Positions 1 to 49,459 of a stretch of 64,000 nt of DNA are shown in pieces. Position 1 is the first letter of the stretch; each line of letters opens with the position of its first letter. Location of the stretch: the NCBI GenBank assembly GCA_949296455.1, contig CASFOZ010000005.1, forward strand, positions 1 through 64,000. The letters are read 5' to 3'. Both the position numbers and the translations under genes were made by a program. This stretch comes from an uncultured Eubacteriales bacterium (lineage in GTDB: Bacteria > Bacillota > Clostridia > Christensenellales > CALVMC01). The notes beneath the pieces are model-generated. The model was not told the origin of the DNA and did not search any database. It saw only the letters and a program-made list of their open reading frames with translations.

Positions 1-92
1 CCACCTGTTCTCATACCGAACACAGAAGTTAAGCCCTTCAGCGCCGATGGTACTTAGTTGGAGACGGCTCGGGAGAGTAGGTCGTTGCCGGA
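1..92 (+). rRNA. rrf: 5S ribosomal RNA, 3' portion (5' end lies upstream of the window)
   Basis: Sequence ccgaacacagaagttaagcccttcagcgccgatggtac...gggagagtaggtcg matches the conserved 3' half of bacterial 5S rRNA (compare B. subtilis ...CCGAACACGGAAGTTAAGCTCTTCAGCGCCGATGGTAGT...GAGAGTAGG...). The exact 3' end is approximate. Confidence 0.9.
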
Positions 93-100
93 TTTTATTA

Positions 101-6157: not shown

Positions 6158-6172
6158 TAAGGGGACGGTAAT

Positions 6173-19257: not shown

Positions 19258-19274
19258 CAGGAGGCAGGATAATT

Positions 19275-22200
19275 ATGAAAGGAAATTATTTTGCACATAG
19301 AAAAATATTTAAATTATCAGTAATATTATTGGTGCTTTCAATTTTAATTGCACTTTTTACAGGTGTACTGTTTGCAAATAAAGATAATTATTTTATAACA
19401 AATAATTCTTATTCGGAAATAGATACAGAAAATACCGGAACGATTTACGGTGGAAGCATTACCGAGTATAACGGAACCGTAAGTTCTGCAATTTCCAATG
19501 CTTACACTGCAGCTAAAAATGCCGGTAATTGGCAGGGTTCAATAAATACATCATACAATCCTGCAAGCGAAAGCATAAACTCGGGAAGAGCAGGAACTTT
19601 TACTCAGCCTTACTATATCGATACGGCAGATCAGCTCGTAAAAGCCATTAACAACGCTTCTACAAAAAGCGGTTCCGATTATACTTACGCAAGTTATAAT
19701 AATGCAAATACATACTTTGTTATAAGAAAAGATATTGATCTTGCTTCAAAATTATATATTGTATCCAATCAGTCAAAAGTTAATTTCAATATATCAGGTT
19801 ATGACTATACTGCAATAAGCGGATATGCAAATTTTGCTACATCGACAGGTGTGCAAAGAGACGGAAAAACATATTCTAATACAACCGATCCGCTCAGAGC
19901 AGTTAACGAATACTTAAAAGATAATAATATATTTGATAATGTATCTTCGATAAATGCGACAGGTAATACATTTAAGACTATAAGTAATTTATATTTGGGG
20001 TTTGCTTCTAATAACGGTTTGTTCAACGAATTGGAAGGGAGCGTTTTAGCATTGAATTTTTATAATGTATATTATAATGGAACAGGAAGCAATCTCAACT
20101 TTTTAGGAGCGTTAGCAGCAAAGAAATACGGGTATTCGGTAGCAAGCGTTAATGTAAGGGGGCTTACTTTTAACATAAGCGGAGGTACTTCATCTGGAAA
20201 TAGCGGATATGGCGGAATTTTAGGGTTTGCAACAAATGGCGGACTTATAGATAATTCTGGTTTCGAAGGAGGATTAATTGCAACAAGTCTAAGAAATGTA
20301 GCAGGTATTGTAGGCTTAACAGATACTAATTTTGACGGTTCTTTTGTCGACAATACAGTTTATGGAAATATTTTATCCGGTAGAGGTAATACCGGAGGTT
20401 TAGTAGGATATCTACAAGGGAATTGCGAATTTAGCGGGACTAATATCAATAATGCAGATATCGAATCGAATTCGGGCTCTTTAGGCGGTATAATTGGAAT
20501 TTTTTCGGGAAGTTCTACAAGTTTACAAATAAGCGGAAACACTAAAAATTTAGGAAATATTCGAGGAACCAGTTCGGTAGGCGGAATAATAGGAACGGTA
20601 AGAGGATATGTAATTATGTCTGATGCCGTAAACGGTTATAACGGCGGTGCCTCAGACAATAATTCAGTAGGAAATTATTGCGATCCTAATGCAAGCATTC
20701 AAGCTTCCGGAAGCGGCGTTGGTGGACTTTTTGGATATGTGTATAGCCAAATTGAAATTAGTAATTGCCATAATTTTATGGAAATCATGTCAGGGCCCAA
20801 ATACGATGTAGGAGGATTAATGGGTATAATTCAAAGCGGTAGCGTTATAGATTCCTGTGTTAACCACGCAGATATATCAATGTTCGACATTTCAAATCTG
20901 GGCGGAATAGTAGGAGTACTCTACGGAGACTCTGAAATTAAAAATAGTGTAAATTACGGAAATATTTCAGCTAAATCAAACGCAGGCGGAATAGCCGGCA
21001 TATCTTATGCTACTATAGAAAATCAAGTATTTAGTGGGTGTAAAAACTATGGAACAATTGCATGTATATCAGGAAGAGCGGCAGGAATCTTTGCTGCGGT
21101 TCATTCTACTGTTAATAATTTAATTATAGAAAACTGTTCTAATTTCGGCTCGGTTTATAACGCTTCTACTATGAACAAGGTAGGAACTGCGAAACCGGGC
21201 GGCGGCACCTACTCTTACGAAGAGGCTTTTAAAGAAAGTTCTTACTCTGCAGCAGCTGCATATGTGGCAGGCATTTTAGGTTATTACGATAATTTTAATG
21301 TAACGGGAGGGGTTACTGTACAAAACTGTACTAACGGAACCTCAGGGACAAACAGTGTGATCAAATCGTCTTATCGCTATATAGGCGGTATTGTCGGAGG
21401 TAGCGGTCTTGCGGAGGACGGAACAGGTACTTTATACGATAATTTCTTTATAACCTTAAAAAATAACACAAATTATATGGATATCTCGGGTTGCGGGTAT
21501 GCAGGCGGACTCTACGGTCATATGAGAGGAAAAATTAAACTTACCATAGGGAACCCCGATATAGATACCAAAACTTACGGAAATTTCGGAACAATAACTT
21601 CTTTTCATTCAACAAGTGCCGATATAGGTTCTATTGCAGGTTGTATAAGGGGAACTCTCGACCTTGTAGGAGACAATGCTTATAAAAATGAAGAAACAAT
21701 CGAGACAAGCGAAGCGGCTACAACCGCAGGTGGTATAATAGGATTTATAGAAGGCACGGGCAGCAATACAATAGAGCTCAGCGCCAACTGGGCAAACGAA
21801 GCCGATATCGTAACCGGCAGAAGTTATGTCGGAGGAATAATCGGCGGAACCAGCAGAGCAAACTTTGTAATTTCCGGCGCAATGTACAATACAGGAGATA
21901 TCATTTGTAAAGCGGGAACAACTTATATAGGCGGTTTGTTTGGCAGCATGGCTTTGTCTCTTAGCATAAAAGCTTATATTTATAACGAAGGTAATGTTTA
22001 CAGTCAGCTCAAAACCACTGACAGTACGGTCAGCAGTGCTTCGGGAAGCATAGGCGGAATTGTCGGAAATGTAGGCGGTAAACTTGAATTTACACAAAGC
22101 GCCGCAGGCTCTTACAACAGCGGTATAGTTTACGCCAATTTCAGAAAGGTCGGCGGTATTGCAGGTAATGTGGGCGGTACGGTATCGATGACCGGAGTTA

Positions 22201-25200
22201 TCAGTGACGAAAATGAAAAAATAAAAGATAAACAATATCCCACAATAAACATTTACAAACCGGGAAGCGATGATGCAGAAGTAGTTACAGTTCTTTCAAC
22301 GGTTTTTGCAGAAGCCTATGCCGGAGGATTTATAGGATATATGACAGGGACGACCGCAAGCTTTACGAACTGTATCAATTACGCTTCCGTTTACTGTACG
22401 GCAAACGATGTCGCAGGCTTTATCGGACAGGGTAATTCTATTACAAGTTTAAGCATGGTTAACTGCAAAAATTACGGCGATATCGCAACCCAGGCTTCGT
22501 GGGCGGGCGGTTTTACCGGTGGCGCACCTCTTGGAGTATATGTAGAAAACTGTGCAAATTACGGTAATATTTCAACTCGTATGAGTCAAAGTGCGGCAGG
22601 TTTCTTCTCGGGAATAGGTTTTAACGATAAAACAGCTTATTCGGTAACTATTAAAAACTCCTTTAACGCAGGTAACATAGCGGGCGCTCTTACAACGGGC
22701 GGACTCATAGGTTATATAAGAAACGCTGAAACCGTCGAAATTACTGACTCATACAGTACGGGCAATGTTTCTGTTGAAAGTGTCGGGACGGGTATTCAGG
22801 CTAGATCGATGGGCGGACTTATTGGTCATGCCGAAAGATTCAATTCCTTAACGCTCAGCAATTGTTATGTGGATTGCGAGAAAGTAGGCGACATAAGCTC
22901 TTTACGAATCGGAGGATTAGTCGGGTATATTTATTACGCAAAGGCGGGTACTGTAAATATCAATAACTGTTATGTGGATATCGATACCATTGTTTCATCG
23001 AGAGATGTAAGCGGAAGTATCGGGGGTATTTCATCTAACGCAAATATTGACAGCAGATTTATTATGAAAGACTGTTATTTTGCGGGCGAATCAATTACCG
23101 GTCAGACCATTGCAGGCGGAATTTTAGGTTTTACCGATGGGCTGAGAGAGATAACCGTTCAAAGAGTTGCTTGTCTTTACTTTGGAATCGAAATTACGAC
23201 AGCAGGAAAGGCTGTTTCAGCTCTTGCTCAGAGTCTTTATGATGTTTCAGGCACCGTTCTTTTCGAAGATATTTATGTAACCAGCAAATTGATTGCGGCA
23301 AACGGGACAGGAGATGTTTCATTGTTTGTAGAATATTTAGAATTTGACAATGCTTACCGAGATTTAAGCGTAACAATTAAAAATTATTATTTCAGCGGAA
23401 ATCCCCAAGATTTCGACTATTTTCAAGGAAGTGAAGATTCAAGCGCAAAAAATAATTATTATAAAGGGAATGTATCGGCAAAACACGCAAATTATTTCGG
23501 CGCAATTGACAATAACAGTAACGGAACGAGTTACAAAAAAACACTCAGTATTCACGATACCTATATAACAAAACTTTCGCAGACCATATCTTTCGACGAA
23601 ATAGGCGGTTCTTCTAATTTTTCCTCAACTTCGGCAGCTGACTTCAACCCGTCTTCAACAAATAACTGCGATTATGAGTTCGGTACGGGAACCGATAATC
23701 TGTTTGTAAATTACAGCGATTTACAAAATATCGATAATTTTAACGGATGGGGAGTTACTCAAGATGTAAGAAGCGGCAGTGCAAACACTTCTTCCACGCC
23801 GTGGGGAATCGACGCTGCCGTAAACGACGGTAAGCCCTTCCTTATCGTTGCAACGATGAAAGAGATCAATATATACTACAATAACATCGGCGACGATCTC
23901 GATATATTCGATAACTCGATTATAAGAAATGTCGATGAAAGGAATAACGAGACCGTAGTTAGTATTATAAGTTATTTTTCCGATACTTTATCTTACAATG
24001 ATATTAAAAACGGCAAACAGGACGACAGCGGTTATAGTTATATCAATGAAATAAAAAGAGTCGGTTATAATGTCAGCGAATTATATAAAGCAAGACAAGA
24101 AAACGGTTCCTATTTAGCAAGCGATAAATATACGGAAATGCCCGTTTCATCGCCGGATAAAGTAATGACATTGAGAAACGGAGCCGATATATATATTTCA
24201 TATTCTGCGATAGAATATACTATAATTATTCCTAACGGCGGTGCGGTTAATGTTGCAGGCGCTGCAAATAATAAATTTACCATAGATAATTTAAGCGGAA
24301 TTAGTATAACGAATAATAATGAAGGACAGTCTTCCTCGTTTGTATATTTTGCGTTACAGAATATAGACGGCGAATACGATTCCGTTGGCGAGAGCAGTAT
24401 GGTTCTTATTGAGGGTTCTCAGGGGACGACAAGTGCGGTATATAAATTGAATTTCGAAGCTTTTATCAACCAACAGCTCATACACAACTATGCAAAATCT
24501 TCCGGTGGTAATATGTCTCTTACCTTTAAGGCTATGTTTATCGAAGTATACGAGGTAACTTTCAATTTATCGGCTGATACCTTCCCGTCCTATGTTACCG
24601 TAATTAATTCAAGCGGAGTATCGGTAGATTTCGGAAATACGATAAGTATCGAAGCGGGAAAACAGGAAACATACACTATTATATTAACAAAGCATTACGA
24701 GCTAGAAAAAGGACCCGTAGATGAATCAACCGGTTCTCCGATAGAAGGAAATACCGCAAATTATAATTACGATAAAACAAAAATGGTTCTTACTATAACC
24801 AATACCAATGCAAACGAAAAATATAATTTTACTATCTATGTTCAGGCAATAGAATATACGGTAGAATACAAATTATATAACACTTCGGGCGAGATATTAA
24901 TGCCGGAGCCGGGCGATATAACATTGGCGACGGAAAGTGCGGTTGTTACGGTAGGAAACGTAATCAGTGCGCAGAATATTTCCATAAATCCGGACAGCGT
25001 CTATAAGTTCGTTACATACAGATACCGTTATACCGAAAACGGCAATGTTAAAACCGAAGATATAGATACGCAGGGCTCGACTGTTTTAGGAACTATTGTT
25101 TGTACTGCCGATTATCTCGATAAATATGTAACCGACGGCAAAATTGTATTTGAGATAATATTCGAGTCAGACGCAACTTTAATTTTAACTATCGGCAATA

Positions 25201-26639
25201 TTGCAGATTGGGACAATGATTACGGTTCGGTAATAATAAATATTTATGATGAAAATTATGTAATGCAGTCAACCGAAACTGTATCAAGGCTTATCAGCGA
25301 GTTCGAACAATCCTTCGACGTCGGATTTATTATAGAGATAATTCCGTGGGTTAATAATCATTTCGAAATAACTGCCTTTACATTGAACGGCGAAAATACC
25401 GAGCTTATTAACGAGAAATTAACCTTGCAGTTAGACTCAAACAAAACCGTCAATATAGAAATGGATTATATCAAGTACGGTATAAGATATTCTATAGTCG
25501 ATGAAAATCATACCGAAATCGACGGCGTTATGGATAATGTTACAATAGAGCTTGAAACAGGACTCGATTATATCACGGCAAGAGGAGACAATGTCACGGG
25601 TCAGATTAGTGAGATTGCAGGTTACGGATTCAATTCTTGGGGAATTTACTATATGGGTGAATTTATCCCATTCAGCGCAAGCGACTATTCGACGGACGGT
25701 TCTCTTAACAGTGCCGAAATAACTCTTTATATATTAGATAATTATATCGACGACAACGGCGAACTGGTAATAGCTAGCAGATTATATACTTTGTTCGATA
25801 TCGATGTTGTGCTTGCCGATATCGGAGACGATTTAGGCGAATTCGAAATCAGAATTTATAACGATATTTTAGACGAATACGGCGACCCTGTGAATATCGA
25901 AGATATCGAAAGTATGCCTTATCTTACTTTGATTAAAGTTACTGCTCTTCCCGGAGAATATTACGATTTCAGACAGTTTATCGGAATATCCGAAGATGAA
26001 ATCAATCAGGAAGATTCTAATATCGCAGAATTCTATCTTACCGAATCGAGAACGGTTATGCTGTATTTCGAAGCAAGACCTATAGCAATTTCAGTTATTG
26101 AAGATTTAACCAGTGCTTCCGGTGAATTGGTTGTTTCAAATTCAAGCGGCAACACCGACAGCTGGAAAGCAGGTGACACTTTGTCATTTACTTTCAACGG
26201 CGCTTTCGGTCAGGAAATCAAAAGCTTCAGCTTCAACGGAATGGACGCAAAAGAATTGTCAACTACTTATGAAAATATAAACTATGCTAACGGAATCCTT
26301 ACGGTTACAATGACTGCCGAATTCCTTGAAACATTGGAAAATAATGATTTCAATATATCCGTTACTTCTCAAATCGGAACGATTTATCTTATAATGTTGT
26401 TAAGCATTATAATTATTCCGATAGTACTAACTATTTTGATTTTGATTTTCGTGATAATCAACATCAAGAGAAGAAAGAAAGCTATGGAAATTGTCGCTCA
26501 AAGAAAAGCTTCAAAATCAAGATTCGAAGCTTCCAATATGGTAAGCGAACTCAGACAAGGTACTTATAAACAGGCAGACAGAAGCGTTTCCAAAGAAGAA
26601 ATCGAGCGTCAGCTTAAAGCAAGAAAAGATAATAAGTAA
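19275..26639 (+). CDS. Giant surface protein B2 (2454 aa), a paralog of B1
   Basis: Starts 17 nt after A2 with RBS aggagg. Collinear with B1 (NWQGSINTSYNPASE, the Cys-ladder rungs, NFNGWGVTQDVRSGSANTSSTPWGIDAAVNDGKPFL). The C-terminal TM plus tail (IKRRKKAMEIVAQRKASKSRFEASNMVSELRQGTYKQADRSVSKEEIERQLKARKDNK) is nearly identical to that of B1. Confidence 0.9.
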   Translation: MKGNYFAHRKIFKLSVILLVLSILIALFTGVLFANKDNYFITNNSYSEIDTENTGTIYGGSITEYNGTVSSAISNAYTAAKNAGNWQGSINTSYNPASESINSGRAGTFTQPYYIDTADQLVKAINNASTKSGSDYTYASYNNANTYFVIRKDIDLASKLYIVSNQSKVNFNISGYDYTAISGYANFATSTGVQRDGKTYSNTTDPLRAVNEYLKDNNIFDNVSSINATGNTFKTISNLYLGFASNNGLFNELEGSVLALNFYNVYYNGTGSNLNFLGALAAKKYGYSVASVNVRGLTFNISGGTSSGNSGYGGILGFATNGGLIDNSGFEGGLIATSLRNVAGIVGLTDTNFDGSFVDNTVYGNILSGRGNTGGLVGYLQGNCEFSGTNINNADIESNSGSLGGIIGIFSGSSTSLQISGNTKNLGNIRGTSSVGGIIGTVRGYVIMSDAVNGYNGGASDNNSVGNYCDPNASIQASGSGVGGLFGYVYSQIEISNCHNFMEIMSGPKYDVGGLMGIIQSGSVIDSCVNHADISMFDISNLGGIVGVLYGDSEIKNSVNYGNISAKSNAGGIAGISYATIENQVFSGCKNYGTIACISGRAAGIFAAVHSTVNNLIIENCSNFGSVYNASTMNKVGTAKPGGGTYSYEEAFKESSYSAAAAYVAGILGYYDNFNVTGGVTVQNCTNGTSGTNSVIKSSYRYIGGIVGGSGLAEDGTGTLYDNFFITLKNNTNYMDISGCGYAGGLYGHMRGKIKLTIGNPDIDTKTYGNFGTITSFHSTSADIGSIAGCIRGTLDLVGDNAYKNEETIETSEAATTAGGIIGFIEGTGSNTIELSANWANEADIVTGRSYVGGIIGGTSRANFVISGAMYNTGDIICKAGTTYIGGLFGSMALSLSIKAYIYNEGNVYSQLKTTDSTVSSASGSIGGIVGNVGGKLEFTQSAAGSYNSGIVYANFRKVGGIAGNVGGTVSMTGVISDENEKIKDKQYPTINIYKPGSDDAEVVTVLSTVFAEAYAGGFIGYMTGTTASFTNCINYASVYCTANDVAGFIGQGNSITSLSMVNCKNYGDIATQASWAGGFTGGAPLGVYVENCANYGNISTRMSQSAAGFFSGIGFNDKTAYSVTIKNSFNAGNIAGALTTGGLIGYIRNAETVEITDSYSTGNVSVESVGTGIQARSMGGLIGHAERFNSLTLSNCYVDCEKVGDISSLRIGGLVGYIYYAKAGTVNINNCYVDIDTIVSSRDVSGSIGGISSNANIDSRFIMKDCYFAGESITGQTIAGGILGFTDGLREITVQRVACLYFGIEITTAGKAVSALAQSLYDVSGTVLFEDIYVTSKLIAANGTGDVSLFVEYLEFDNAYRDLSVTIKNYYFSGNPQDFDYFQGSEDSSAKNNYYKGNVSAKHANYFGAIDNNSNGTSYKKTLSIHDTYITKLSQTISFDEIGGSSNFSSTSAADFNPSSTNNCDYEFGTGTDNLFVNYSDLQNIDNFNGWGVTQDVRSGSANTSSTPWGIDAAVNDGKPFLIVATMKEINIYYNNIGDDLDIFDNSIIRNVDERNNETVVSIISYFSDTLSYNDIKNGKQDDSGYSYINEIKRVGYNVSELYKARQENGSYLASDKYTEMPVSSPDKVMTLRNGADIYISYSAIEYTIIIPNGGAVNVAGAANNKFTIDNLSGISITNNNEGQSSSFVYFALQNIDGEYDSVGESSMVLIEGSQGTTSAVYKLNFEAFINQQLIHNYAKSSGGNMSLTFKAMFIEVYEVTFNLSADTFPSYVTVINSSGVSVDFGNTISIEAGKQETYTIILTKHYELEKGPVDESTGSPIEGNTANYNYDKTKMVLTITNTNANEKYNFTIYVQAIEYTVEYKLYNTSGEILMPEPGDITLATESAVVTVGNVISAQNISINPDSVYKFVTYRYRYTENGNVKTEDIDTQGSTVLGTIVCTADYLDKYVTDGKIVFEIIFESDATLILTIGNIADWDNDYGSVIINIYDENYVMQSTETVSRLISEFEQSFDVGFIIEIIPWVNNHFEITAFTLNGENTELINEKLTLQLDSNKTVNIEMDYIKYGIRYSIVDENHTEIDGVMDNVTIELETGLDYITARGDNVTGQISEIAGYGFNSWGIYYMGEFIPFSASDYSTDGSLNSAEITLYILDNYIDDNGELVIASRLYTLFDIDVVLADIGDDLGEFEIRIYNDILDEYGDPVNIEDIESMPYLTLIKVTALPGEYYDFRQFIGISEDEINQEDSNIAEFYLTESRTVMLYFEARPIAISVIEDLTSASGELVVSNSSGNTDSWKAGDTLSFTFNGAFGQEIKSFSFNGMDAKELSTTYENINYANGILTVTMTAEFLETLENNDFNISVTSQIGTIYLIMLLSIIIIPIVLTILILIFVIINIKRRKKAMEIVAQRKASKSRFEASNMVSELRQGTYKQADRSVSKEEIERQLKARKDNK

Positions 26640-26833: not shown

Positions 26834-29287
26834 ATGGGGTTTTCGAAAAACCAGTTTTGTAAACATGTTGAATGGGAAGACAAGTCGTCAGACAGTATCG
26901 GTTTAAGATTTATCTCTAACGGCGATAAGGAAATCTCTAAAAATTCAAAAGTTATCGTTGAGGACAATCAACTCGCTTTATTTTATTTGGAAGGTCAAAT
27001 CACCGATGTTTTTTGGCCGGGTACTTATAAACTTTCCGATTCCGATAAGGTCGCTGTGACTTCGGAAATGTTAGGGTGGAGGCATCCTTTCGATACCCCC
27101 TATGAAGGCGATGTGTATTTTTTCAATACCGATAGTTTTTCAAAACAAAAATGGGTAACTCATTCTGCCGTAACCGTAAACGATAATGAAAGCGGTGGAG
27201 TTAAAATAAAATGTTTCGGAACTTTTTCTTATAATGTTATAAACCCCGGCAATCTTATTGCCAAAGCTTTCGGAGCAAAACCTCTTCTTAAAACCTCCGA
27301 TTTGGAAGCTTCTTTAAACGATATAATTACCAAAAATATTCCCGCTATTTTTTCGGAAAGTAAAATTTCCGTAAAAGCGGCAATTTCCGATTCAAGCGCT
27401 CTTTCCGAGACTGCTCTAAATGTCTTACAGAACGATTTTTCGGAATTAGGTTTAGAAGTAAGAGCTTTTGCTTTTGATAATATTACAAACGAGGATGAAA
27501 AGCCTACTTTAGCGGCTTACGAGGAAACGCCCGTCGAAATCAAAACCACAAAAACGGAAAATTTCCAAAATACTAACCAGCAGATACAATACCCGAATCA
27601 ACAAATGCCGCAATCAAATCAGCAGATACATTATCCGAATCAGCAGCCGCATTCTAACCAACAAATACAATATCCTAACCAACAGGCTCAGGCTTCAAGA
27701 TCGGAATCGGTTCAGTCACAACAGCAAAGACCGTCTAATCCGTCATCTTACAATAATTATCAAAATTCTTATCTTACACGCTCCCCGATGGGCGGAGCCA
27801 GCGGTGGCGGACTTGCTATAAACGACGCTTTTCTTAGAGCTAAAGGTGTTCAGCAGACAAATAAATTAGAAGAAAGAAAGGAATGTCCGAAGTGTCATAC
27901 TATGGTAAAAATTTCTTCAAGGTTTTGTCCTAACTGCGGCAGCGAAGTTAATGCGAAAAAAACTTGCAGTAATTGCGGAGCAGAAATAAACAGCAATGCC
28001 AAGTTTTGTCCTGAATGCGGAAAAACCGTTACCGATATTTTAGAATCAAAGAAAAATTGTCCCAACTGCGGTGCGGAACTCAAACCGGGAGCAAAATTCT
28101 GTCCTGAGTGCGGTACTTCTGTTTTGAATAATACTGTTTCTGCAAATATGCCTGCAAATCAGAATTCTGCCATAAACCAGAATGATTCCTTTGACGCAAA
28201 TCAGAGTGTACATGAAATTAGAGAGACGGTTGAAAATCCAAACGCTTCACAATTACGGAAAGATGAAAGCGAGGTTAATAATACTGTTTCAAGTGAAAGA
28301 CCTTTCGAAAACAATAATATTACTTCTTCCATGGACTCTTCTTCCGAAGAAAAAAAATCCGATATCTTAGAAAGCGAAAATGTTCAAGGTCAAAGTATCA
28401 AGAATTTGGAAAGCGAAAATGAAAACGATTTATCCGCAAACAGTGCTTCCGAAGAGTCGTTACAGACTGAAAGCAATAGTTTGAATGACGGTGAAAATCA
28501 CGCTCAATTCGTTGAGAACGGTTCTGTTTCGGAAGTTTTAAGTTCCGATAATAAAAAAGAAACGGCAGATTTAATCGACGAAACGAATAATGAAAATAGT
28601 GAAAATTTTAATCAGCAAAATATAGATAAGGAAGATAATAATGTTGTCGCCGAATCCGATTCGGAAGAAAAGGTAAATATAAATTTGTCTTCCGAAAATG
28701 AAGAAGTATCGCAAAACCCTATAAATAATGTTTCGGAAAATACTTCTGAATCTTCCGATTCCGATTTAAAAAATGCGGACACAAACGAAATTGAAGAAAA
28801 AAGTTCAGACAATTCTTTAAATCAAGACAGTATTAATGAAAGTAACGAAGAACGGTTTTTAAATCAGAACGAACAGATTGCTGAAAATCAAGATATTGAA
28901 GATAACTCTATTTCGGACAGCAGATACGAAAATCAATCCGTTGACGAGACTAATAATTTAAATGCTAACCTTGAAAACTTATCTCAGCAAAAAAACAGTT
29001 TTCAGAACGATATCGAAATGATGAAAAAAATAATCGTGGAAAGTGATAATGTTTCAAGAGAAAACACGGTTAAAAGTTCGGCTTTTGAAAACGATATCAA
29101 AAATATTTATCAAGGCGAGCAACCTAAAATGCCGTCGTCCGAAAATTCCGTTCCGTTTACAAACGGCGGTATGAATCAAAATCCGAATAACGATATCCAG
29201 TCAAGATTACAGCAGAATATCAATTCTTCGCAAAATAATTTCGCAGGTCAAAATGCGGAAAATTCCGAAGATGATAAAAAAAAATGA
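26834..29287 (+). CDS. SPFH-type (Band_7_1 / YdjI-like) domain protein (817 aa). It is fused to a Gln-rich tandem repeat, three double-zinc-ribbon motifs and a long acidic Ser/Asn/Glu-rich disordered tail.
   Basis: The N-terminus MGFSKNQFCKHVEWEDKSSDSIGLRFISNGDKEI...VEDNQLALFYLEGQITDVFWPGTYKLS follows the characteristic opening of Band_7_1 family proteins (MG..F....IEW.D.S.D.L.WRFP....I..G..L.V.E.Q.A.F...GQ..DVF.PG.Y.L). Three repeats of NQQIQYPNQQ. follow, then CPKCHTMVKISSRFCPNCGSEV, CSNCGAEINSNAKFCPECGKTV and CPNCGAELKPGAKFCPECGTSV. The remaining ~380 aa are low-complexity and acidic. Confidence 0.8.
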   Translation: MGFSKNQFCKHVEWEDKSSDSIGLRFISNGDKEISKNSKVIVEDNQLALFYLEGQITDVFWPGTYKLSDSDKVAVTSEMLGWRHPFDTPYEGDVYFFNTDSFSKQKWVTHSAVTVNDNESGGVKIKCFGTFSYNVINPGNLIAKAFGAKPLLKTSDLEASLNDIITKNIPAIFSESKISVKAAISDSSALSETALNVLQNDFSELGLEVRAFAFDNITNEDEKPTLAAYEETPVEIKTTKTENFQNTNQQIQYPNQQMPQSNQQIHYPNQQPHSNQQIQYPNQQAQASRSESVQSQQQRPSNPSSYNNYQNSYLTRSPMGGASGGGLAINDAFLRAKGVQQTNKLEERKECPKCHTMVKISSRFCPNCGSEVNAKKTCSNCGAEINSNAKFCPECGKTVTDILESKKNCPNCGAELKPGAKFCPECGTSVLNNTVSANMPANQNSAINQNDSFDANQSVHEIRETVENPNASQLRKDESEVNNTVSSERPFENNNITSSMDSSSEEKKSDILESENVQGQSIKNLESENENDLSANSASEESLQTESNSLNDGENHAQFVENGSVSEVLSSDNKKETADLIDETNNENSENFNQQNIDKEDNNVVAESDSEEKVNINLSSENEEVSQNPINNVSENTSESSDSDLKNADTNEIEEKSSDNSLNQDSINESNEERFLNQNEQIAENQDIEDNSISDSRYENQSVDETNNLNANLENLSQQKNSFQNDIEMMKKIIVESDNVSRENTVKSSAFENDIKNIYQGEQPKMPSSENSVPFTNGGMNQNPNNDIQSRLQQNINSSQNNFAGQNAENSEDDKKK
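27581..27712 (+). repeat. Three tandem ~40-nt repeats encoding (S/T)NQQI(Q/H)YPNQQ.. inside the SPFH/zinc-ribbon gene
   Basis: TNQQIQYPNQQMPQ / SNQQIHYPNQQPH / SNQQIQYPNQQAQAS read directly from the translation. Confidence 0.7.
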
Positions 29288-32200
29288 TTGAAGACGGAGA
29301 TGCCGTTGATTCTGATGAGTTTTTAAAAGTAAATAAAGACGATAACTATTATAATGACTCCTTTTCCGATAACGGTTCGGATAGGGAGTCTTTTTATGCA
29401 AATCAGCAAAGTACAAGTAATTTTGAAGATGAAAGTTTTTTGGGGCAATCCGATTTAGGAAATCGGCAATTTTCCGATAACGAATTCAATTCTCATTTTG
29501 AAAATCAAGCGGATAATTCAAACGGTAATGTTGATTTACATAATAATTTTAACGGTAAAGATGATTTAAATAATAATTTATATGATAACGATGTTTTAAA
29601 CACTTATAACGATAATGATTTATACGATAAAAATTTAAATTCTTATAACGATAACGATTCAATAAAAAACGATGTAAATTTATATAACCAAAATGATTTA
29701 TTCGACGATTCTGAAAATAGCGTAGATACTTTGCCGAATAATACAAACGAACAATACTATTTTGAGAATGATTTGAACGATAACGAAATCGTTGGGGAAT
29801 CGGAAAACCCGTTAAATCTTCATAACGGAAATTTTCAAAATTCTGAAAGCGACTTCGAAAATCCCGTAAAAGAATTGAAAAATTCTGAAAACGATGTTTA
29901 TAATTTCAAAAATCCAACAGAAAATCAATACGATTTTAAAAATGCCAACGGAAACGAAATGGCTGTTGATAACAAAATCGACAACGGTGAGAATATTGCA
30001 GATACAAACCCACTCTTTGGAAAAAGAGCCGAAAATTCACAAAACAACAGTGAAGAAGGAAATTTCAATTCGGATGTAGAAAGCCGATTTGTCCAAAATA
30101 CTGCAAATACAATGGACGAAAATACAACGGCTGAGAATTTTCTGAACGATACACGGACTGCTTTTCAAAACAAATTAGATAATGCCCTTTTTAAGGATTT
30201 CGATGATTTTGAGAAAAGTCAAAATACCGATGATTTTGGCGACGATAATTTCAGCGGTGCAGAGATTGCTTTGAAAAATCGAAAAGAAACAGAAGAAGAA
30301 TTTTCGAATGACACGGTAATAGAAAGGGAAACAACCGAAAAAGAATTTGAATCGAACAAAACCGTTTTCAATCCATATTTTAATGATGAAGATATAGAAG
30401 AAAAAGAAAATATCGAAAAAGCTTCTTTATCGGAAAATCATTTAAAAGAAGAAAATGAAAAAGAAATAGATTCAGAAATTAGTGAGTCGGAAAAGAAAGC
30501 TAAAGTAGAGATAGGCGAGTCGGAAAAGAAAATAAGAGTAGGAAATGATGAGTCGCAAGCAGATACAGAAGAAGAAAGCGATGAATCGATAGATGATAGG
30601 TCGTCTGATAAAGAAACAAACGACATAAAACCGACAGACGAGAAAAATCAAAATTCAGAAAACACCGAAGATTTTAACGACGGCAAAGAGGAAATAAAAA
30701 ACCGTTCTATAAATATAAATTTAACCAATCAATTTTTAAATAATTTAAGCATGGCTCAATCAAATGAGAAAATCAAACAAGAGCAGCCTATGCCGGTAGA
30801 TACCGATATAGAAAAGAAAGGGAATAAGAATATTTTAGGGAAGTATTCGGATTTTTTAGACAGCTTAAAAACTCAGGCGGGAGTAAATGATAAGAAAGAA
30901 GATAACTTAGATATTGAATCCGACGATAGCGAAAATGACGCAGATAATACGGAAAATATACAGGCTGAAAAAGAAGACCTTTCAGAAAGCGATGAATTGA
31001 ATTTTCCCGAGTCAAAAGTTTACGATAATTCAAATGCCGAAAACGAAAATATATTCAAAAATTCCGTTGACGAAAAAGAAGAGTCTGAACCTAAACAGGA
31101 GCAGCAGACTTTCGACCCCGGCGCATACCTTAAAAATGTAATAAATCAAAATCAAAATTCCGAAAATGACGCACCTAAAGAAAAAGTTAAAAGAACGATA
31201 TTTGACGAAGAAGATGATGAAGATATAAAGTCGTATAATAAAGAAGATATCAGAAAGTTATTGTTCGACGACGAAGAAGAGGACGAACAAGAAGAGATAC
31301 AAAAAGAAAATTATGTTCAAGCTAGCGAGCAAGACAAAAAGGAAGGGCAAGATAAAAGGGAAGAGCAGGTCAAACAGGAAAGTCAGCCTTTCGACGCAAG
31401 TTCTTATATTAAGAATTTAATATCTTCAAACCAAAAAGAAGTCAAGGAAGAAGAGTCGGAAAAGCAGTCGCCGAAAGCATTTGGAGAAGCTGCCGAAAAC
31501 GAAAACATATTCAAAAATTCCGTTGACGAAAAAGAAGAGTCTGAGCCTAAACAGGAGCAGCAGACTTTCGACCCCGGCGCATACCTTAAAAACATAATAA
31601 ACCAAAATCAGAATAAAGAAAATAAAGATTTAAACAATGAAATAAAAAAAGATAATTTGTTTGCCGATTTATCGAAAAACAATATTTCCGATAATTCAGA
31701 GTCCGATGCCGAAGACGCAAGTGATGGCGAAATGATTTCGAAAATAATGTTCCGAAAAATGGGTATAGAAGATATCGAAGACGATGAAGAGGATGAGAGC
31801 GAAAATGTTTCGGATAGAAAAATCGATTCTTCGGTTGCAGAAAGTCAGAAATTTTTATCGGATAACGAAGCCGTCAAAGATTCAGACAGAGAAACAAGGC
31901 CTAAGGTAAAAACAATTTTCGACGACGATGATGAAGAAGAGCCCGATAAAACTCCCCGTGGGGATTCTTTTGCCGAACAGTTGCTGCGAAAAATGCAGGC
32001 TATGAAAGAGGAAAGGGAGAAAGGCAAAAGAAATTTCGATACAAACGAAGCAAGATATAATCCTTTGTCCGAATACGGAAGCGGACGCAATTATTCAAGC
32101 AGGACGAACGAAAAAGCAAATAACGACGACAGAACTAATTTTGAAAGCAAACAGGAAATAAAAGAAACCGTTCAAGAAGAGCCGGTAAAGCAAAGTATTT

Positions 32201-32553
32201 CTCAAGAGATAAAATCGGATTCGTTTAAAGAAAGCGAAACACGCAAAGACGACATTTCTCTAAATACCGATATTTCAAGCAAAACCGGTGCGGATAATTT
32301 AAATACAAAATCCGAAAACAATAACGGATATGCAAAAGCTCAGCCGACCGGATATTCCCATTCTTTTGTCGATAATATTCTTACATACGGATACGGATGG
32401 GACGATGTGTATTCGTTCAATCAGGAAATTTCGGACGAAGAAGGACTTCTCAACGCATTCGGAGTGTCGAACAAAAGTTATGAAAATGCAGGTTTAAATC
32501 AGCCGTTGAGTTACGATAACGACGACCCGTTAAAAAACATAAAAAAGCCTTAA
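29284..32553 (+). CDS. Hyper-acidic low-complexity protein (1089 aa; Asp/Glu/Asn/Ser/Lys-rich, predicted disordered), with no TM segment or signal peptide
   Basis: A 3.3-kb ORF whose ATG overlaps the stop of the upstream gene (aaaaaaaaATGA). The composition is dominated by D/E/N/S/K and contains an internal duplicated block ENENIFKNSVDEKEESEPKQEQQTFDPGAYLKN(V/I)INQNQN. The coding potential is supported only by ORF length and codon continuity, and low-complexity ORFs can be overcalled. Confidence 0.65.
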   Translation: MIEDGDAVDSDEFLKVNKDDNYYNDSFSDNGSDRESFYANQQSTSNFEDESFLGQSDLGNRQFSDNEFNSHFENQADNSNGNVDLHNNFNGKDDLNNNLYDNDVLNTYNDNDLYDKNLNSYNDNDSIKNDVNLYNQNDLFDDSENSVDTLPNNTNEQYYFENDLNDNEIVGESENPLNLHNGNFQNSESDFENPVKELKNSENDVYNFKNPTENQYDFKNANGNEMAVDNKIDNGENIADTNPLFGKRAENSQNNSEEGNFNSDVESRFVQNTANTMDENTTAENFLNDTRTAFQNKLDNALFKDFDDFEKSQNTDDFGDDNFSGAEIALKNRKETEEEFSNDTVIERETTEKEFESNKTVFNPYFNDEDIEEKENIEKASLSENHLKEENEKEIDSEISESEKKAKVEIGESEKKIRVGNDESQADTEEESDESIDDRSSDKETNDIKPTDEKNQNSENTEDFNDGKEEIKNRSININLTNQFLNNLSMAQSNEKIKQEQPMPVDTDIEKKGNKNILGKYSDFLDSLKTQAGVNDKKEDNLDIESDDSENDADNTENIQAEKEDLSESDELNFPESKVYDNSNAENENIFKNSVDEKEESEPKQEQQTFDPGAYLKNVINQNQNSENDAPKEKVKRTIFDEEDDEDIKSYNKEDIRKLLFDDEEEDEQEEIQKENYVQASEQDKKEGQDKREEQVKQESQPFDASSYIKNLISSNQKEVKEEESEKQSPKAFGEAAENENIFKNSVDEKEESEPKQEQQTFDPGAYLKNIINQNQNKENKDLNNEIKKDNLFADLSKNNISDNSESDAEDASDGEMISKIMFRKMGIEDIEDDEEDESENVSDRKIDSSVAESQKFLSDNEAVKDSDRETRPKVKTIFDDDDEEEPDKTPRGDSFAEQLLRKMQAMKEEREKGKRNFDTNEARYNPLSEYGSGRNYSSRTNEKANNDDRTNFESKQEIKETVQEEPVKQSISQEIKSDSFKESETRKDDISLNTDISSKTGADNLNTKSENNNGYAKAQPTGYSHSFVDNILTYGYGWDDVYSFNQEISDEEGLLNAFGVSNKSYENAGLNQPLSYDNDDPLKNIKKP
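31035..31165 (+). repeat. Intragenic direct repeat, copy 1 (~130 bp)
   Basis: gccgaaaacgaaaatatattcaaaaattccgttgacgaaaaagaagagtctgaacctaaacaggagcagcagactttcgaccccggcgcataccttaaaaatgtaataaatcaaaatc... Confidence 0.8.
31492..31622 (+). repeat. Intragenic direct repeat, copy 2 (~130 bp, near-identical to copy 1)
   Basis: gccgaaaacgaaaacatattcaaaaattccgttgacgaaaaagaagagtctgagcctaaacaggagcagcagactttcgaccccggcgcataccttaaaaacataataaaccaaaatc... Only a handful of substitutions relative to copy 1. Confidence 0.8.
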
Positions 32554-37957: not shown

Positions 37958-38326
37958 ATGATACAACCACAAACAAGACTCAATGTAGCCGATAATACCG
38001 GCGCCAAAGAACTTATGTGTATCAGAGTGCTTGGCGGTTCTTTCAGAAGAAGCGGCAACATAGGCGATGTTATCGTAGCTTCCGTTAAATCCGCTTCTCC
38101 CGGCGGCGTAGTAAAAAAAGGCGATGTCGTAAAGGCTGTTATCGTCAGAACTAGTAAGGGGATAGGAAGACCCGACGGTTCTCATATCAGATTCGACGAC
38201 AATGCCGCAGTTATTATAGATAACCAGAAAATGCCGAGAGGAACCCGTATCTTCGGGCCTATCGCAAGGGAACTCAGAGAGAAAGATTATATGAAAATTA
38301 TCTCTCTTGCGCCCGAAGTGCTTTAA
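37958..38326 (+). CDS. rplN: 50S ribosomal protein L14
   Basis: [17 protein letters not shown]... Confidence 0.97.
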
Positions 38327-38338
38327 TGGAGGAGTAAA

Positions 38339-38881
38339 ATGAATTATAGTATTAAAAAAGGCGACGCCGTTAAAGTTATAAGCGGTAAGGATAAAGGTAA
38401 ATCGGGACAAGTTATTGCCGTTCTTAAAGACCAGCACCGTGTTGTCGTAGAAGGCGTCAATATCGTTTCAAAACACACAAAGCCCAGAAACGCTCAGCAG
38501 AAAGGCGGAATCGTCAAAAGAGAAGGTTCTATCGACATTTCCAATGTAATGCTTGTTTGCGCAAGCTGCGGCAAACCTACGAGAGTAGGTCATAAAATCG
38601 AAAATAACGACGGAAAAGAAAATAAAGTCAGGGTATGCGTAAAATGCGGTTCGGTTATTGCCGAAAACAAAGCAAAAGCAGCCGTTAAAAAGGCTAAAAA
38701 GGCAGTAAAGAAAACCGACGGTAAAGAAGCAGAAGCTTCCGAACCCGTAAAAAAGAACGCTCCCAAAAAGAAAACTTCGGTAGCAGAAAATACAACCGAA
38801 GTCAAAACCGAAGTTAAAACCACAGTAAAAAAGAGGACGGCGGCCGACGCCGATAAAACCTCAGACGGAGGTAATGAATAG
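38339..38881 (+). CDS. rplX: 50S ribosomal protein L24 carrying an unusual Cys4 motif and a ~75-aa Lys/Ala/Thr/Glu-rich C-terminal extension
   Basis: The KOW core [45 protein letters not shown]...[17 protein letters not shown] is L24. It is followed by [13 protein letters not shown]...[11 protein letters not shown] (C-x2-C...C-x2-C) and then [38 protein letters not shown]... Confidence 0.9.
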
Positions 38882-39915
38882 TGGCTGAAAATAAAGTTCA
38901 GGTTGCTAAGGAAACTGCAACCGAAAAAGAAAAAGCTAAAAAGACAACCGAAAGCAAGCCTTCTGCGGAAAAGAAAACTGCCGCAAAAACGGCAACCGAA
39001 AAGAGTGCTTCCGCAAAAACGGTAAACGAGAAAAGCGAAACCGTTAAAAAGACCGCTGCTTCTAAAACAATTGCTTCCAAAACGGCAGCTGAAAAGAAAA
39101 CTTCTGCAAGCAAAACGGAAACCGTAAAGAAACCTGCTGCAAGCAAATCTGCCGATGCGGACAAAACCGCAAAAGCAACTGCCGCAAGCAAAACAACCGC
39201 AAAAACAGCGGCTAATAAAAGCGCTGCTTCTGCAAAATCTGTTTCCGGAACCGCTTCGACAGGAGCAGAGAAAAAAGCTCCCGAAAAAACCGAGAGCAAA
39301 ACTTCTGCCGCTCCCAAAAAAGCCGTAGCCGAAAAAAAGGCTCCCGCAAAACAGATCGAAGCAGAACAAAGCAGATTAAAGCTTCATTATAAAAATACCG
39401 TTGTTCCCGCTCTTATCAAAAAATTCGGATATAAAAACATAAATCAGGTTCCGAAGCTTGAAAAGATTGTCCTTAATATGGGACTCGGAGATGTCAAAGA
39501 CAATTCAAAAAGCGTTCAGATGGCTATCGACGAATTAAAAATGATTGCAGGGCAGAAACCCATTCCGACAAAAGCCAAAAAGAGCGTTGCAAACTTCAAA
39601 CTCAGACAGGGCGCAGTTATCGGTGCGAAAGTAACTCTGAGAGGCGGAAGAATGTACGATTTCCTCGATAAATTTATTTCAATAGCTTTACCGAGAGTAA
39701 GAGACTTCAGAGGTCTTTCGGATAAGTCTTTCGACGGCAGAGGAAATTACGCTACCGGTATCAAGGAACAGCTTATTTTCCCCGAAATATCTTATGACCA
39801 GATTGAAAAAATAAGAGGTTTCGATATCTGCTTCGTAACTACCGCTAAAAACGACGAAGAAGCAAAAGAGTTTCTTAAACTTTTAGGTCTTCCCTTCGTC
39901 AAAAAGGAGGCTTAA
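38881..39915 (+). CDS. rplE: 50S ribosomal protein L5 with a ~165-aa Ala/Lys/Thr/Ser-rich N-terminal extension
   Basis: The C-terminal 180 aa ([42 protein letters not shown]...[28 protein letters not shown]...) are canonical L5. The ORF opens with GTG overlapping the L24 stop (taGTG) and has no internal ATG before the L5 core. The extension reads [23 protein letters not shown]... and is histone-H1-like low complexity. Confidence 0.85.
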
Positions 39916-48952: not shown

Positions 48953-49459
48953 ATGGCTAAAAAATTAGGCAGACCTACCGACCAGAGAATGGCTATTATT
49001 AAAAATCAGGCTTCAGAACTTCTTTGGTACGGAAGAATAGAAACAACCGTCGACAGAGCAAAGGCTATCGGCAGATATGCCGAAAAAATGCTTACTCTTG
49101 CAATCAATTCCTATGACGATGTCGCTACGGCAACGAAAAAGAAAGTAAACCTTAAAGGTAATGCCGTTAATGTTAAATTTGAAAACGACGGCGTTAAAAA
49201 GCTTAATGCAAGACGCAGACTTATGGCAGGACTTGTCGACCTTAAACCGGTCAAGAGCAAGGACCAGTCCAAAAGCGAATACCGTAACGAAAACAAGGAT
49301 GTCAATCACCCTCTCATTGAAAAGATATTCAGAGAATACGCTCCCAAATATGCAAAGCGTAATCAGGAAAACGGAAAGGGCGGCGGTTATACAAGAGTTA
49401 TAAAATTAGGTCAAAGAAGAGGCGACGCCGCTGAAATGGCTATCGTAGAACTTGTATAA
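48953..49459 (+). CDS. rplQ: 50S ribosomal protein L17 (168 aa, with an internal insertion relative to typical ~120-aa L17)
   Basis: ...GRPTDQRMAIIKNQASELLWYGRIETTVDRAKA... and the C-terminal ...GGGYTRVIKLGQRRGDAAEMAIVELV. Confidence 0.94.
   Translation: MAKKLGRPTDQRMAIIKNQASELLWYGRIETTVDRAKAIGRYAEKMLTLAINSYDDVATATKKKVNLKGNAVNVKFENDGVKKLNARRRLMAGLVDLKPVKSKDQSKSEYRNENKDVNHPLIEKIFREYAPKYAKRNQENGKGGGYTRVIKLGQRRGDAAEMAIVELV

Follow-up and report, generated by a model that had tools for sequence, protein, structure and literature searches.

Low-complexity tails of ribosomal proteins uL24 and uL5 and a candidate regulatory RNA hairpin at the beginning of the rplE coding sequence in Christensenellales

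When examining a 64,000-nucleotide stretch of DNA (hereinafter, the window) from an uncultured Eubacteriales bacterium of the order Christensenellales (GenBank assembly GCA_949296455.1, contig CASFOZ010000005.1, positions 1 to 64,000), we found that two adjacent ribosomal protein genes, rplX and rplE, encode proteins with long low-complexity extensions and that the first codons of rplE harbor a conserved hairpin, a candidate regulatory RNA. As seen from the list of open reading frames (ORFs) and the raw sequence, rplX (uL24) and rplE (uL5) are neighboring plus-strand genes within a standard S10-spc-alpha ribosomal gene cluster, in which the uL24 gene lies between rplN and rplE and the gene order is L29-S17-L14-L24-L5-S14-S8-L6-L18-S5-L30. 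A first-pass annotation, prepared without database searches, correctly took the organism for a Firmicute and reported that both proteins are extended; both extensions are found where it placed them, namely, a 73-residue C-terminal tail of uL24 and a 163-residue N-terminal extension of uL5, and the GTG of rplE and the TAG stop of rplX share one nucleotide. No comparable low-complexity segment is present in any other ORF of the window. In a scan that included one genome per species, the nearest relatives are uncultured Clostridia, represented by gut and rumen metagenome-assembled genomes (MAGs) labelled Christensenella or Christensenellales, the closest species representative being CALVMC010000006 (L002), with an L5 of 295 amino acids (aa).

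The canonical core of uL5 is readily recognized: residues 164-341 align to the Geobacillus L5 (1iq4) with E = 2.5e-76, and residues 186-339 match the Pfam families Ribosomal_L5 (86.4 bits, cut-off 34.9) and Ribosomal_L5_C (134 bits, cut-off 27.8). The 163 low-complexity residues ahead of the core are mostly A (25%), K (23%), T (15%), S (12%) and E (10%), include no aromatic residues and carry a net charge of +19, that is, only +0.12 per residue; the extension is a polyampholyte. The first-pass annotation started uL5 at the GTG overlapping the rplX stop and raised the possibility of an internal non-ATG start near position 39370. The former placement holds and the latter does not: none of codons 2 to 175 of rplE is an ATG, GTG or TTG, no Shine-Dalgarno-like sequence is found near 39370, an in-frame stop lies two codons 5' of the GTG, and a GGAGG ends 9 nt before it. 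Moreover, cGGAGGt followed by GTG is found in 65/65 loci that bear the hairpin described below. Because the GTG at 38881 is the only in-frame start ahead of the core, the essential L5 core can be produced solely as part of the extended protein. The identical 344-aa protein is encoded in independent NCBI, ENA and Logan assemblies, and among the relatives, in which L5 is 242-346 aa long, more than 20 variant alleles are all in frame.

In uL24, residues 7-107 match the Pfam families KOW (29.2 bits, cut-off 22.3) and ribosomal_L24 (94 bits, cut-off 27), and residues 5-107 align to solved uL24 chains with E = 1.6e-27. The tail, residues 108-180, is a K/A/T/E segment (K 26%, A 18%) with a net charge of +8, and past the zinc ribbon, a basic consensus, K..KK.AKK, is common to uL24 homologues and conserved across many Clostridia. 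We compared the window with the DNA of seven relatives, L002 among them, reporting only the pairs with unsaturated synonymous divergence (dS), and found that the ratio of nonsynonymous to synonymous substitution rates (dN/dS) is 0.19-0.60 in the uL5 extension vs 0.02-0.06 in the core, and 0.13-0.58 in the uL24 tail vs 0.04-0.09 in the core; the values below 1 in the tails point to relaxed but real purifying selection. Judging from the reading frames and their conservation, both tails are translated. AlphaFold2 (AF2) models were built from family alignments. In that of uL5, residues 1-161 have a predicted local distance difference test score (pLDDT) of about 30 and are without secondary structure, and the core is well predicted; in that of uL24, the core has a pLDDT of 80-93, a helix at residues 112-125 about 60-78, and residues 124-180 less than 50. 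Both tails are thus predicted to be disordered.

In its C-terminal beta-hairpin, ahead of the tail, uL24 contains a Cys4 motif with zinc-ribbon spacing that the first-pass annotation correctly spotted and interpreted as a gain, on the premise that L24 normally has no metal site. This interpretation does not stand. A 2023 study (PMC10450194) lists uL24 among the zinc-coordinating ribosomal proteins of Thermus thermophilus and defines the C+ isoform of uL24 by the (CXXC)-(CXXC) pattern, to which the window cysteines, C74-x2-C77 ... C100-x2-C103, conform, matching those of T. thermophilus uL24 (chain 10px_1Y and others) one-to-one. The Thermus protein reads ICPACGKPTRV...RVCAKCG and the window protein ...RVCVKCG, at equivalent alignment positions in the C-terminal beta-hairpin. 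All of the nearest 120 uL24 homologues have the four cysteines, 93 in the strict pattern and 27 as CxxC..CxC or CxC..CxxC; in an alignment of 84 homologues, C74, C77, C100 and C103 are invariant. The motif is present in every Christensenellales locus in which uL24 could be delimited, hence the site is ancestral in the order; in the outgroups Tissierellales, Finegoldia and Caloranaerobacter, uL24 is 102-105 aa long and Cys-free. Thus, the Cys4 motif is the known zinc-binding C+ isoform, zinc coordination in the window protein being predicted from the sequence. There are differences from the Thermus form: the loop between the knuckles is 4 residues longer in the window protein, and Thermus uL24 stops 7 residues past the last cysteine whereas the window uL24 runs 77 further. 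Furthermore, C+ uL24 has been discussed as thermophile-enriched, whereas the host of the window is a mesophilic gut anaerobe; this isoform is common in mesophilic gut Clostridia and is not confined to thermophiles. The neighboring S14 is likewise the short, Cys-containing form.

The comparison with related L24 and L5 that the first-pass annotation had proposed shows that the uL5 extension is lineage-specific and the Cys4 motif ancestral in the order. In about 55 Christensenellales species, L24 consists of 132-142 aa with a basic tail of 28-38 residues, and in the genus of the window, its length is fixed at 180-181 aa, with 77-78 residues after the last cysteine. The spacer between rplX and rplE in most relatives is 15-28 nt long and holds the rplE Shine-Dalgarno sequence; the last residues of the window L24, ...SDGGNE (38864-38881), correspond to this spacer, with GGAGG encoding part of DGG. 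In the window genus, the L24 frame has extended over the old spacer up to a TAG overlapping the L5 GTG. In four other Christensenellales species (L057, L059, L060 and L061), uL24 reaches 228-283 aa, with tails of 124-179 residues, and the uL5 leader is still 21-22 residues long; these uL24 tails represent an independent expansion.

The evolution of the uL5 extension followed a different course. In the same about 55 species, L5 is 198-202 aa long and has an N-extension of 19-25 aa (MAEKKNQVAKAxATD...NAERY), and in the window genus, about 148 extra codons are found within this ancestral extension, between ...ATE and ...AEQS. Among the near relatives, the extension varies from 62 to 169 aa, a 2.7-fold range. 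Tandem Repeats Finder (TRF) and a repeat finder detect degenerate units of 30 and 33 nt, spaced in nearly every case by a multiple of 3, and sister alleles differ by block indels, such as a 16-residue block that distinguishes the window from L082; the block indels together with the repeat spacing are consistent with a coding repeat that undergoes slippage or unequal recombination. The 148 codons that separate the hairpin from the L5 core arose by in-frame, lineage-specific growth of the 30-33-nt repeats, probably through one of these two processes. The product is a linker that is mildly basic and predicted to be disordered; its composition is under constraint, whereas its sequence and length are not. 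Given that the L24 tail is fixed and the L5 extension variable, the contiguity of the two low-complexity segments reflects the adjacency of the genes, not one event. The first-pass annotation attributed both extensions to one contiguous stretch of about 800 bp; the contiguity is confirmed, although the low-complexity DNA proper spans about 38660-39369 (710 bp), and a single insertion producing both tails was rejected given that the tails differ in phylogenetic distribution and dynamics.

Long extensions of L5 are not without precedent in this order and beyond. Lineage-specific expansions outside the window genus (P0031, P0057, P0072, P0073 and P0093; L5 of 217-346 aa) differ in composition from lineage to lineage and arose independently. 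In one metagenome lineage (L089; JGI 3300042619, Ga0466726_351810), several ribosomal proteins are enlarged together, namely, S17 (355 aa), S5 (255 aa), L29 (95 aa) and L5 (339 aa), the extension of L5 being P/A/K-rich; here, rplE starts with ATG and the hairpin is retained. We further searched the L5 core against 1.84 billion cluster representatives using phmmer and inspected the best 150 matches. Among these are many unrelated proteins with A/K/E/P/T-rich N-extensions of 50-160 residues (for example, P0241, P0242, P0246, P0252, P0256, P0266, P0329, P0336 and P0351), none of which has the Christensenellales cap, and some other L5 that are extended C-terminally. The uL5 extension is therefore a large new instance of a recurrent, known phenomenon. 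Structurally documented cases come from the ribosome of Cutibacterium acnes, in which uL4 is longer by about 100 disordered residues and uL5 by 31 residues at its C-terminus (PMC10085706). The extensions in C. acnes and Mycobacterium smegmatis comprise tens to about 100 residues, are solvent exposed and are invisible or poorly ordered in cryo-electron microscopy (cryo-EM). The window uL5 differs from that of C. acnes in being extended at the N-terminus rather than the C-terminus, by 163 aa that nearly double the protein; unlike in those two species, the extension is repeat-derived, varies in length between sister species and is known from sequence alone. On their own, the tails described here lengthen the list of bacterial ribosomal proteins with disordered, lineage-specific extensions, and they show that an essential protein can be almost doubled in size by a tail whose length shifts between sister species. 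For genome annotation, it follows that start-codon choice and protein-length filters can discard real genes, and the tails are also relevant to metaproteomics and to the idea of a flexible protein coat on ribosomes.

Whereas the sequence 3' of it expands freely, the extreme N-terminus of uL5 is frozen, and the hairpin located there offers an explanation. This 29-nt element, UUC-A-GGUUGC-[UAAGGAAACU]-GCAACC-GAA, forms a helix of 9 bp with a single bulged A and is capped by a loop of 10 nt, with GGUUGC (38901-38906) pairing with GCAACC (38917-38922) and UUC with GAA on the flanks; it starts 16 nt past the initial G of the GTG, and the low-complexity insert adjoins it directly on the 3' side. The loop consensus is U-A-A-n-G-n-A-n-C-U. 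Comparing species-level loci across the order Christensenellales (65-66 loci for the codon statistics), we found the same third bases in 63-66 of the 66 loci at codons 7-9 (CAG GTT GCT) and 13-14 (GCA ACC), and unchanged third bases at codons 11 and 12, where the amino acid switches (A/E/V and T/P/A, respectively). The third-position entropy is close to 0 in 8/9 consecutive hairpin codons, whereas the L5 core of these genomes averages 1.2 bits, and only 3 of the 125 core codons with a conserved residue fall below 0.2 bits, none of them adjacent. Across more than 60 Christensenellales species, the synonymous sites of the hairpin do not vary. Among 30 distinct sequences, 98.9% of the cells are paired, and sliding the partner by 1-3 columns lowers this share to 43% or less; the outer pair is A-U in 23 sequences, U-A in 4 and C-G in 1, with two mismatches. 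The replacements N6V and D15E in the window clade amount to a Watson-Crick compensatory change at this pair, and in one sequence, a G-C pair of the stem is changed to G-U. Over the region -55..+35, RNAalifold detects the hairpin helix only, and five variants fold alike, at -9 to -11 kcal/mol. The hairpin persists in lineages in which rplE starts with ATG and in which the number of codons preceding the hairpin codons ranges from 4 to 7. Taken together, the synonymous-site and pairing patterns indicate that this element is conserved at the RNA level.

A search of metagenomes for the stem with a free loop supports the specificity of the association with L5: among the 120 matches listed, the 6 that show the loop consensus are exactly those with an L5 core in frame downstream, and the other 114 are chance matches, so that this result bears on specificity, not on distribution. 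The hairpin has no match in Rfam 15, with no plus-strand hit at E <= 10 in 38300-39500, and three weak minus-strand hits in this region are low-complexity noise; within the window, no second copy was found at up to 3 mismatches. In the long-read MAG L003 (CP091723, ~3930-3960), rplE appears to contain a frameshift, caused by an extra A in a poly-A run just 5' of the hairpin, which is probably a long-read homopolymer error and not a sign of a pseudogene. The hairpin is, then, an apparently undescribed candidate regulatory RNA that is worth following up.

Its location is suggestive of the target of S8, which in Escherichia coli represses the spc operon at the rplE start (PMC10931766; PMC3616713) by binding an mRNA structure that mimics 16S rRNA helix 21. 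Beyond E. coli and, apparently, Vibrio cholerae, the regulation of this operon is stated to be unknown, including in Bacillus subtilis (review PMC10931766). Both the E. coli operator and the window hairpin lie at the translation start of rplE, largely within its coding sequence, and the window loop, UAAG|GAAACUG, can be set against the two strands of the E. coli S8 site, AAGU (+80..+83) and GAAACUG (+6..+12), numbered in rplE as in PMC4176348; the E. coli rplE sequence used here was verified against 5,426 E. coli genomes. The architectures differ, however: the E. coli operator consists of two helices flanking a conserved 7-nt asymmetric internal loop, an arrangement that is absent from the window hairpin, which has one helix and the two strands joined as a 10-nt loop. 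In the S8-binding core, one strand carries A595-A596-G597 and the opposite strand A640-N641-A642-C643-U644, of which A642 does not vary; in the 65 loci, the A642 equivalent is A in 37, C in 18 and G in 10, and the G597 equivalent is A in 35, G in 23, C in 5 and U in 2. Comparison by eye of the hairpin with helix III and loop C of the organism's own 5S rRNA revealed no resemblance and hence gave no hint of a 5S mimic that L5 or L18 would bind.

We propose that the hairpin is a candidate cis-regulatory RNA, likely an operator for a ribosomal protein; S8 as its ligand, suggested by analogy, would be a lead only. The first 15 rplE codons constitute an order-wide leader with the hairpin 14-23 nt past the start codon, from which it would modulate the initiation of rplE and of the coupled downstream spc genes, in a position analogous to that of the E. 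coli S8 operator. The hairpin suggests why the L5 of Christensenellales has an N-terminal leader in the first place. The fuller scenario, in which the hairpin is a candidate S8-site mimic of helix 21, the N-extension of L5 exists to house the operator, and this permissive leader was later inflated, independently in several lineages, to disordered tails of 60-170 residues, is possible but tentative, and on balance we do not expect it to hold in its entirety. A hairpin at the rplE start is in any case a small, easily synthesized and directly testable candidate for spc-operon regulation and, if it proves to be one, would exemplify a universal protein whose N-terminus has been shaped by a regulatory RNA.

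On the ribosome, the tails would be flexible surface appendages that act, if at all, through generic electrostatic or steric effects, with their length near neutral. We regard the account as a whole, comprising the C+ uL24, the translated, repeat-derived tails and the hairpin as a candidate operator, as probable, and the points that weigh against it and against the proposed role of the hairpin deserve to be spelled out. The account is based on sequences and models; dN/dS in low-complexity alignments depends on the alignment, and a low pLDDT does not by itself establish disorder. The cost of carrying about 236 additional residues in each ribosome speaks against pure neutrality. The proposed placement of the tails follows the general architecture of the ribosome, in which uL24 sits close to the exit of the tunnel and uL5 belongs to the central protuberance; the uL5 N-terminus and the uL24 C-terminus would be solvent exposed. 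As for the hairpin, it is conservation that suggests that it may be regulatory, and in 8/9 stem pairs, either neither base varies or just one of the two does, so that only the outer pair covaries, and this pair is mismatched in about 5 sequences. Finally, one Christensenellales locus (L062; JBMNLD010000003) encodes a 60-residue K/A/P-rich L5 N-extension without the QVAK cap or the hairpin.

Several other explanations have to be considered. The first-pass annotation called the uL5 extension histone-H1/AlgP-like, and the tails might indeed be functional H1/Hc2-like nucleic-acid-binding modules maintained by selection for an extra-ribosomal nucleoid or rRNA-clamping role. They are K/A-rich and positively charged on balance, show a weak similarity to the Pfam family HC2 (PF07382; E = 1e-6), evolve with dN/dS below 1 and, in L24, contain a proximal basic helix conserved in many Clostridia. 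In addition, there is a precedent for DNA binding in that the uL24 of B. subtilis condenses and binds DNA in vitro and perturbs nucleoids when overproduced (PMC10931766). Like the H1 C-terminal domain, Hc2 and Pseudomonas AlgP, the window tails are Lys/Ala-rich, repeat-derived and predicted to be disordered, but they are also rich in Thr, Ser and Glu and are fused to ribosomal proteins rather than standalone. The HC2 match scores 29.5 bits against a gathering score of 40, and we rejected assignment to the HC2/H1 family on this ground, leaving a likeness of composition only. Furthermore, with 12-16% acidic residues, the window tails have a charge density far below that of H1/Hc2 tails, and the 2.7-fold length range of the L5 extension and its lack in most of the order would be unexpected for a required module. 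We therefore consider a dedicated nucleic-acid-binding role unlikely. Selection at the level of the peptide could alternatively account for the frozen N-terminus: the cap MAE(K/N)KxQVAKxxAT(D/E) would be a docking signal on a variable linker and not an RNA element, in keeping with its position at the extreme N-terminus whatever the linker length and with the conservation of Q7, V8, A9, A13 and T14 in at least 90% of the proteins. However, the third positions of the respective codons (CAG, GTT, GCT, GCA and ACC) are invariant although synonymous change would be free, residues 11 and 12 change chemically with the third bases fixed, the N6V replacement is paired with the compensatory D15E, and the AF2 model of the cap has a pLDDT of about 43 and no structure; a purely peptide-level explanation thus appears quite improbable.

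The remaining alternatives concern the existence of the extended protein itself. The bL27 of Firmicutes carries an N-terminal propeptide that is removed, and the L5 extension could similarly be a pro-sequence that is translated and then cleaved during or after assembly, leaving a mature uL5 of normal size. Nothing supports this directly, although the weak constraint on length and the conserved ...AE(R/Q)(Y/S) junction before the core are compatible with it; there is no identified protease or recognizable cleavage motif, the low-complexity uL5 N-extensions that recur in unrelated lineages have no common junction, and the known extensions of bacterial ribosomal proteins, for example, those of C. 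acnes (PMC10085706), stay attached, so that we find cleavage very unlikely. Low-complexity DNA is prone to mis-assembly, and one homologue (P0125) has a frameshifted tail, in addition to the homopolymer frameshift in L003, so the extension might conceivably be an artefact of assembly or gene calling or be bypassed by an internal L5 start near the core. Given the lack of in-frame starts ahead of the core and of a Shine-Dalgarno-like sequence near 39370, the agreement of the independent assemblies and the preservation of the frame in the variant alleles, all described above, such an artefact or internal start is hardly credible. Accordingly, we retain the reading of the tails as translated, low-complexity appendages, and the features of the locus are collected in Table 1.

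Table 1. Features of the rplX-rplE region (coordinates of the window)
Feature	Positions	Strand	Basis
rplX, uL24, 180 aa (core residues 1-107)	38339..38881	+	ORF, Pfam, solved uL24 chains, AF2
Cys4 zinc-ribbon knuckles of uL24 (C74, C77, C100, C103), C+ isoform; zinc binding predicted	38558..38647	+	Alignment to T. thermophilus uL24
uL24 C-terminal tail, residues 108-180	38660..38878	+	AF2, homologue alignment, dN/dS
Predicted basic helix at the proximal end of the uL24 tail, residues ~112-125	38672-38713	+	AF2
GGAGG Shine-Dalgarno sequence of rplE, inside the last rplX codons	38867..38871	+	Sequence
rplE, uL5, 344 aa, GTG start	38881..39915	+	ORF, conserved GTG
RNA hairpin, rplE codons 6-15	38897..38925	+	Third-position entropy, pairing counts, RNAalifold
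uL5 low-complexity A/K/T/S/E insert, residues 16-163	38926..39369	+	Relatives, repeats, AF2
Canonical uL5 core, residues 164-344	39370..39915	+	Structure alignments, Pfam, dN/dS
Antisense ORFs, 259 aa and 139 aa, by-products	38590..39369 and 38898-39317	-	Composition, relatives

The two long antisense ORFs of this region had been dismissed as spurious in the first-pass annotation, and we concur. Their products contain 23% Phe, mirroring the AAA, GCN and GAA codons of the sense strand, which has few TTA, CTA and TCA triplets, and in the relatives, the stop-free antisense length scales with the length of the low-complexity DNA. This mirror composition, together with the length scaling, identifies these ORFs as by-products, and the possibility that they are genuine antisense genes was rejected.

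Elsewhere in the window, several features are worth mentioning. Positions 1-93 (plus strand) contain the 3' part of a 5S rRNA (RF00001, 70.6 bits), the only Rfam family that reaches its gathering score in the whole window; because this gene is cut by the window edge, an rRNA operon must lie just upstream. Further downstream, at 851-13594 and 13945-26639 (plus strand), giant ORFs form two paralogous pairs arranged in tandem (1768 + 2473 aa and 1770 + 2454 aa; 53% and 46% identical), with hydrophobic N-termini and Gly/Asn-rich repeats, for which the only Pfam match is a weak one to the InlB B-repeat; these are probably huge surface proteins. The region 26834-32553 (plus strand) encodes an SPFH/Band-7 protein of 817 aa with double zinc ribbons, the gene for which overlaps by 4 nt that of a 1089-aa protein with very acidic, N/D/E/S-rich low complexity, no Pfam match and an internal duplicated block, AENENIFKNSVDEKEESEPKQEQQTFDPGAYLKN. 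Finally, bL17 (48953-49459, plus strand) consists of 168 aa, and because the Pfam L17 profile, of 97 positions, extends over residues 16-168, the protein must contain an internal insertion of about 50 residues, which is not of low complexity.

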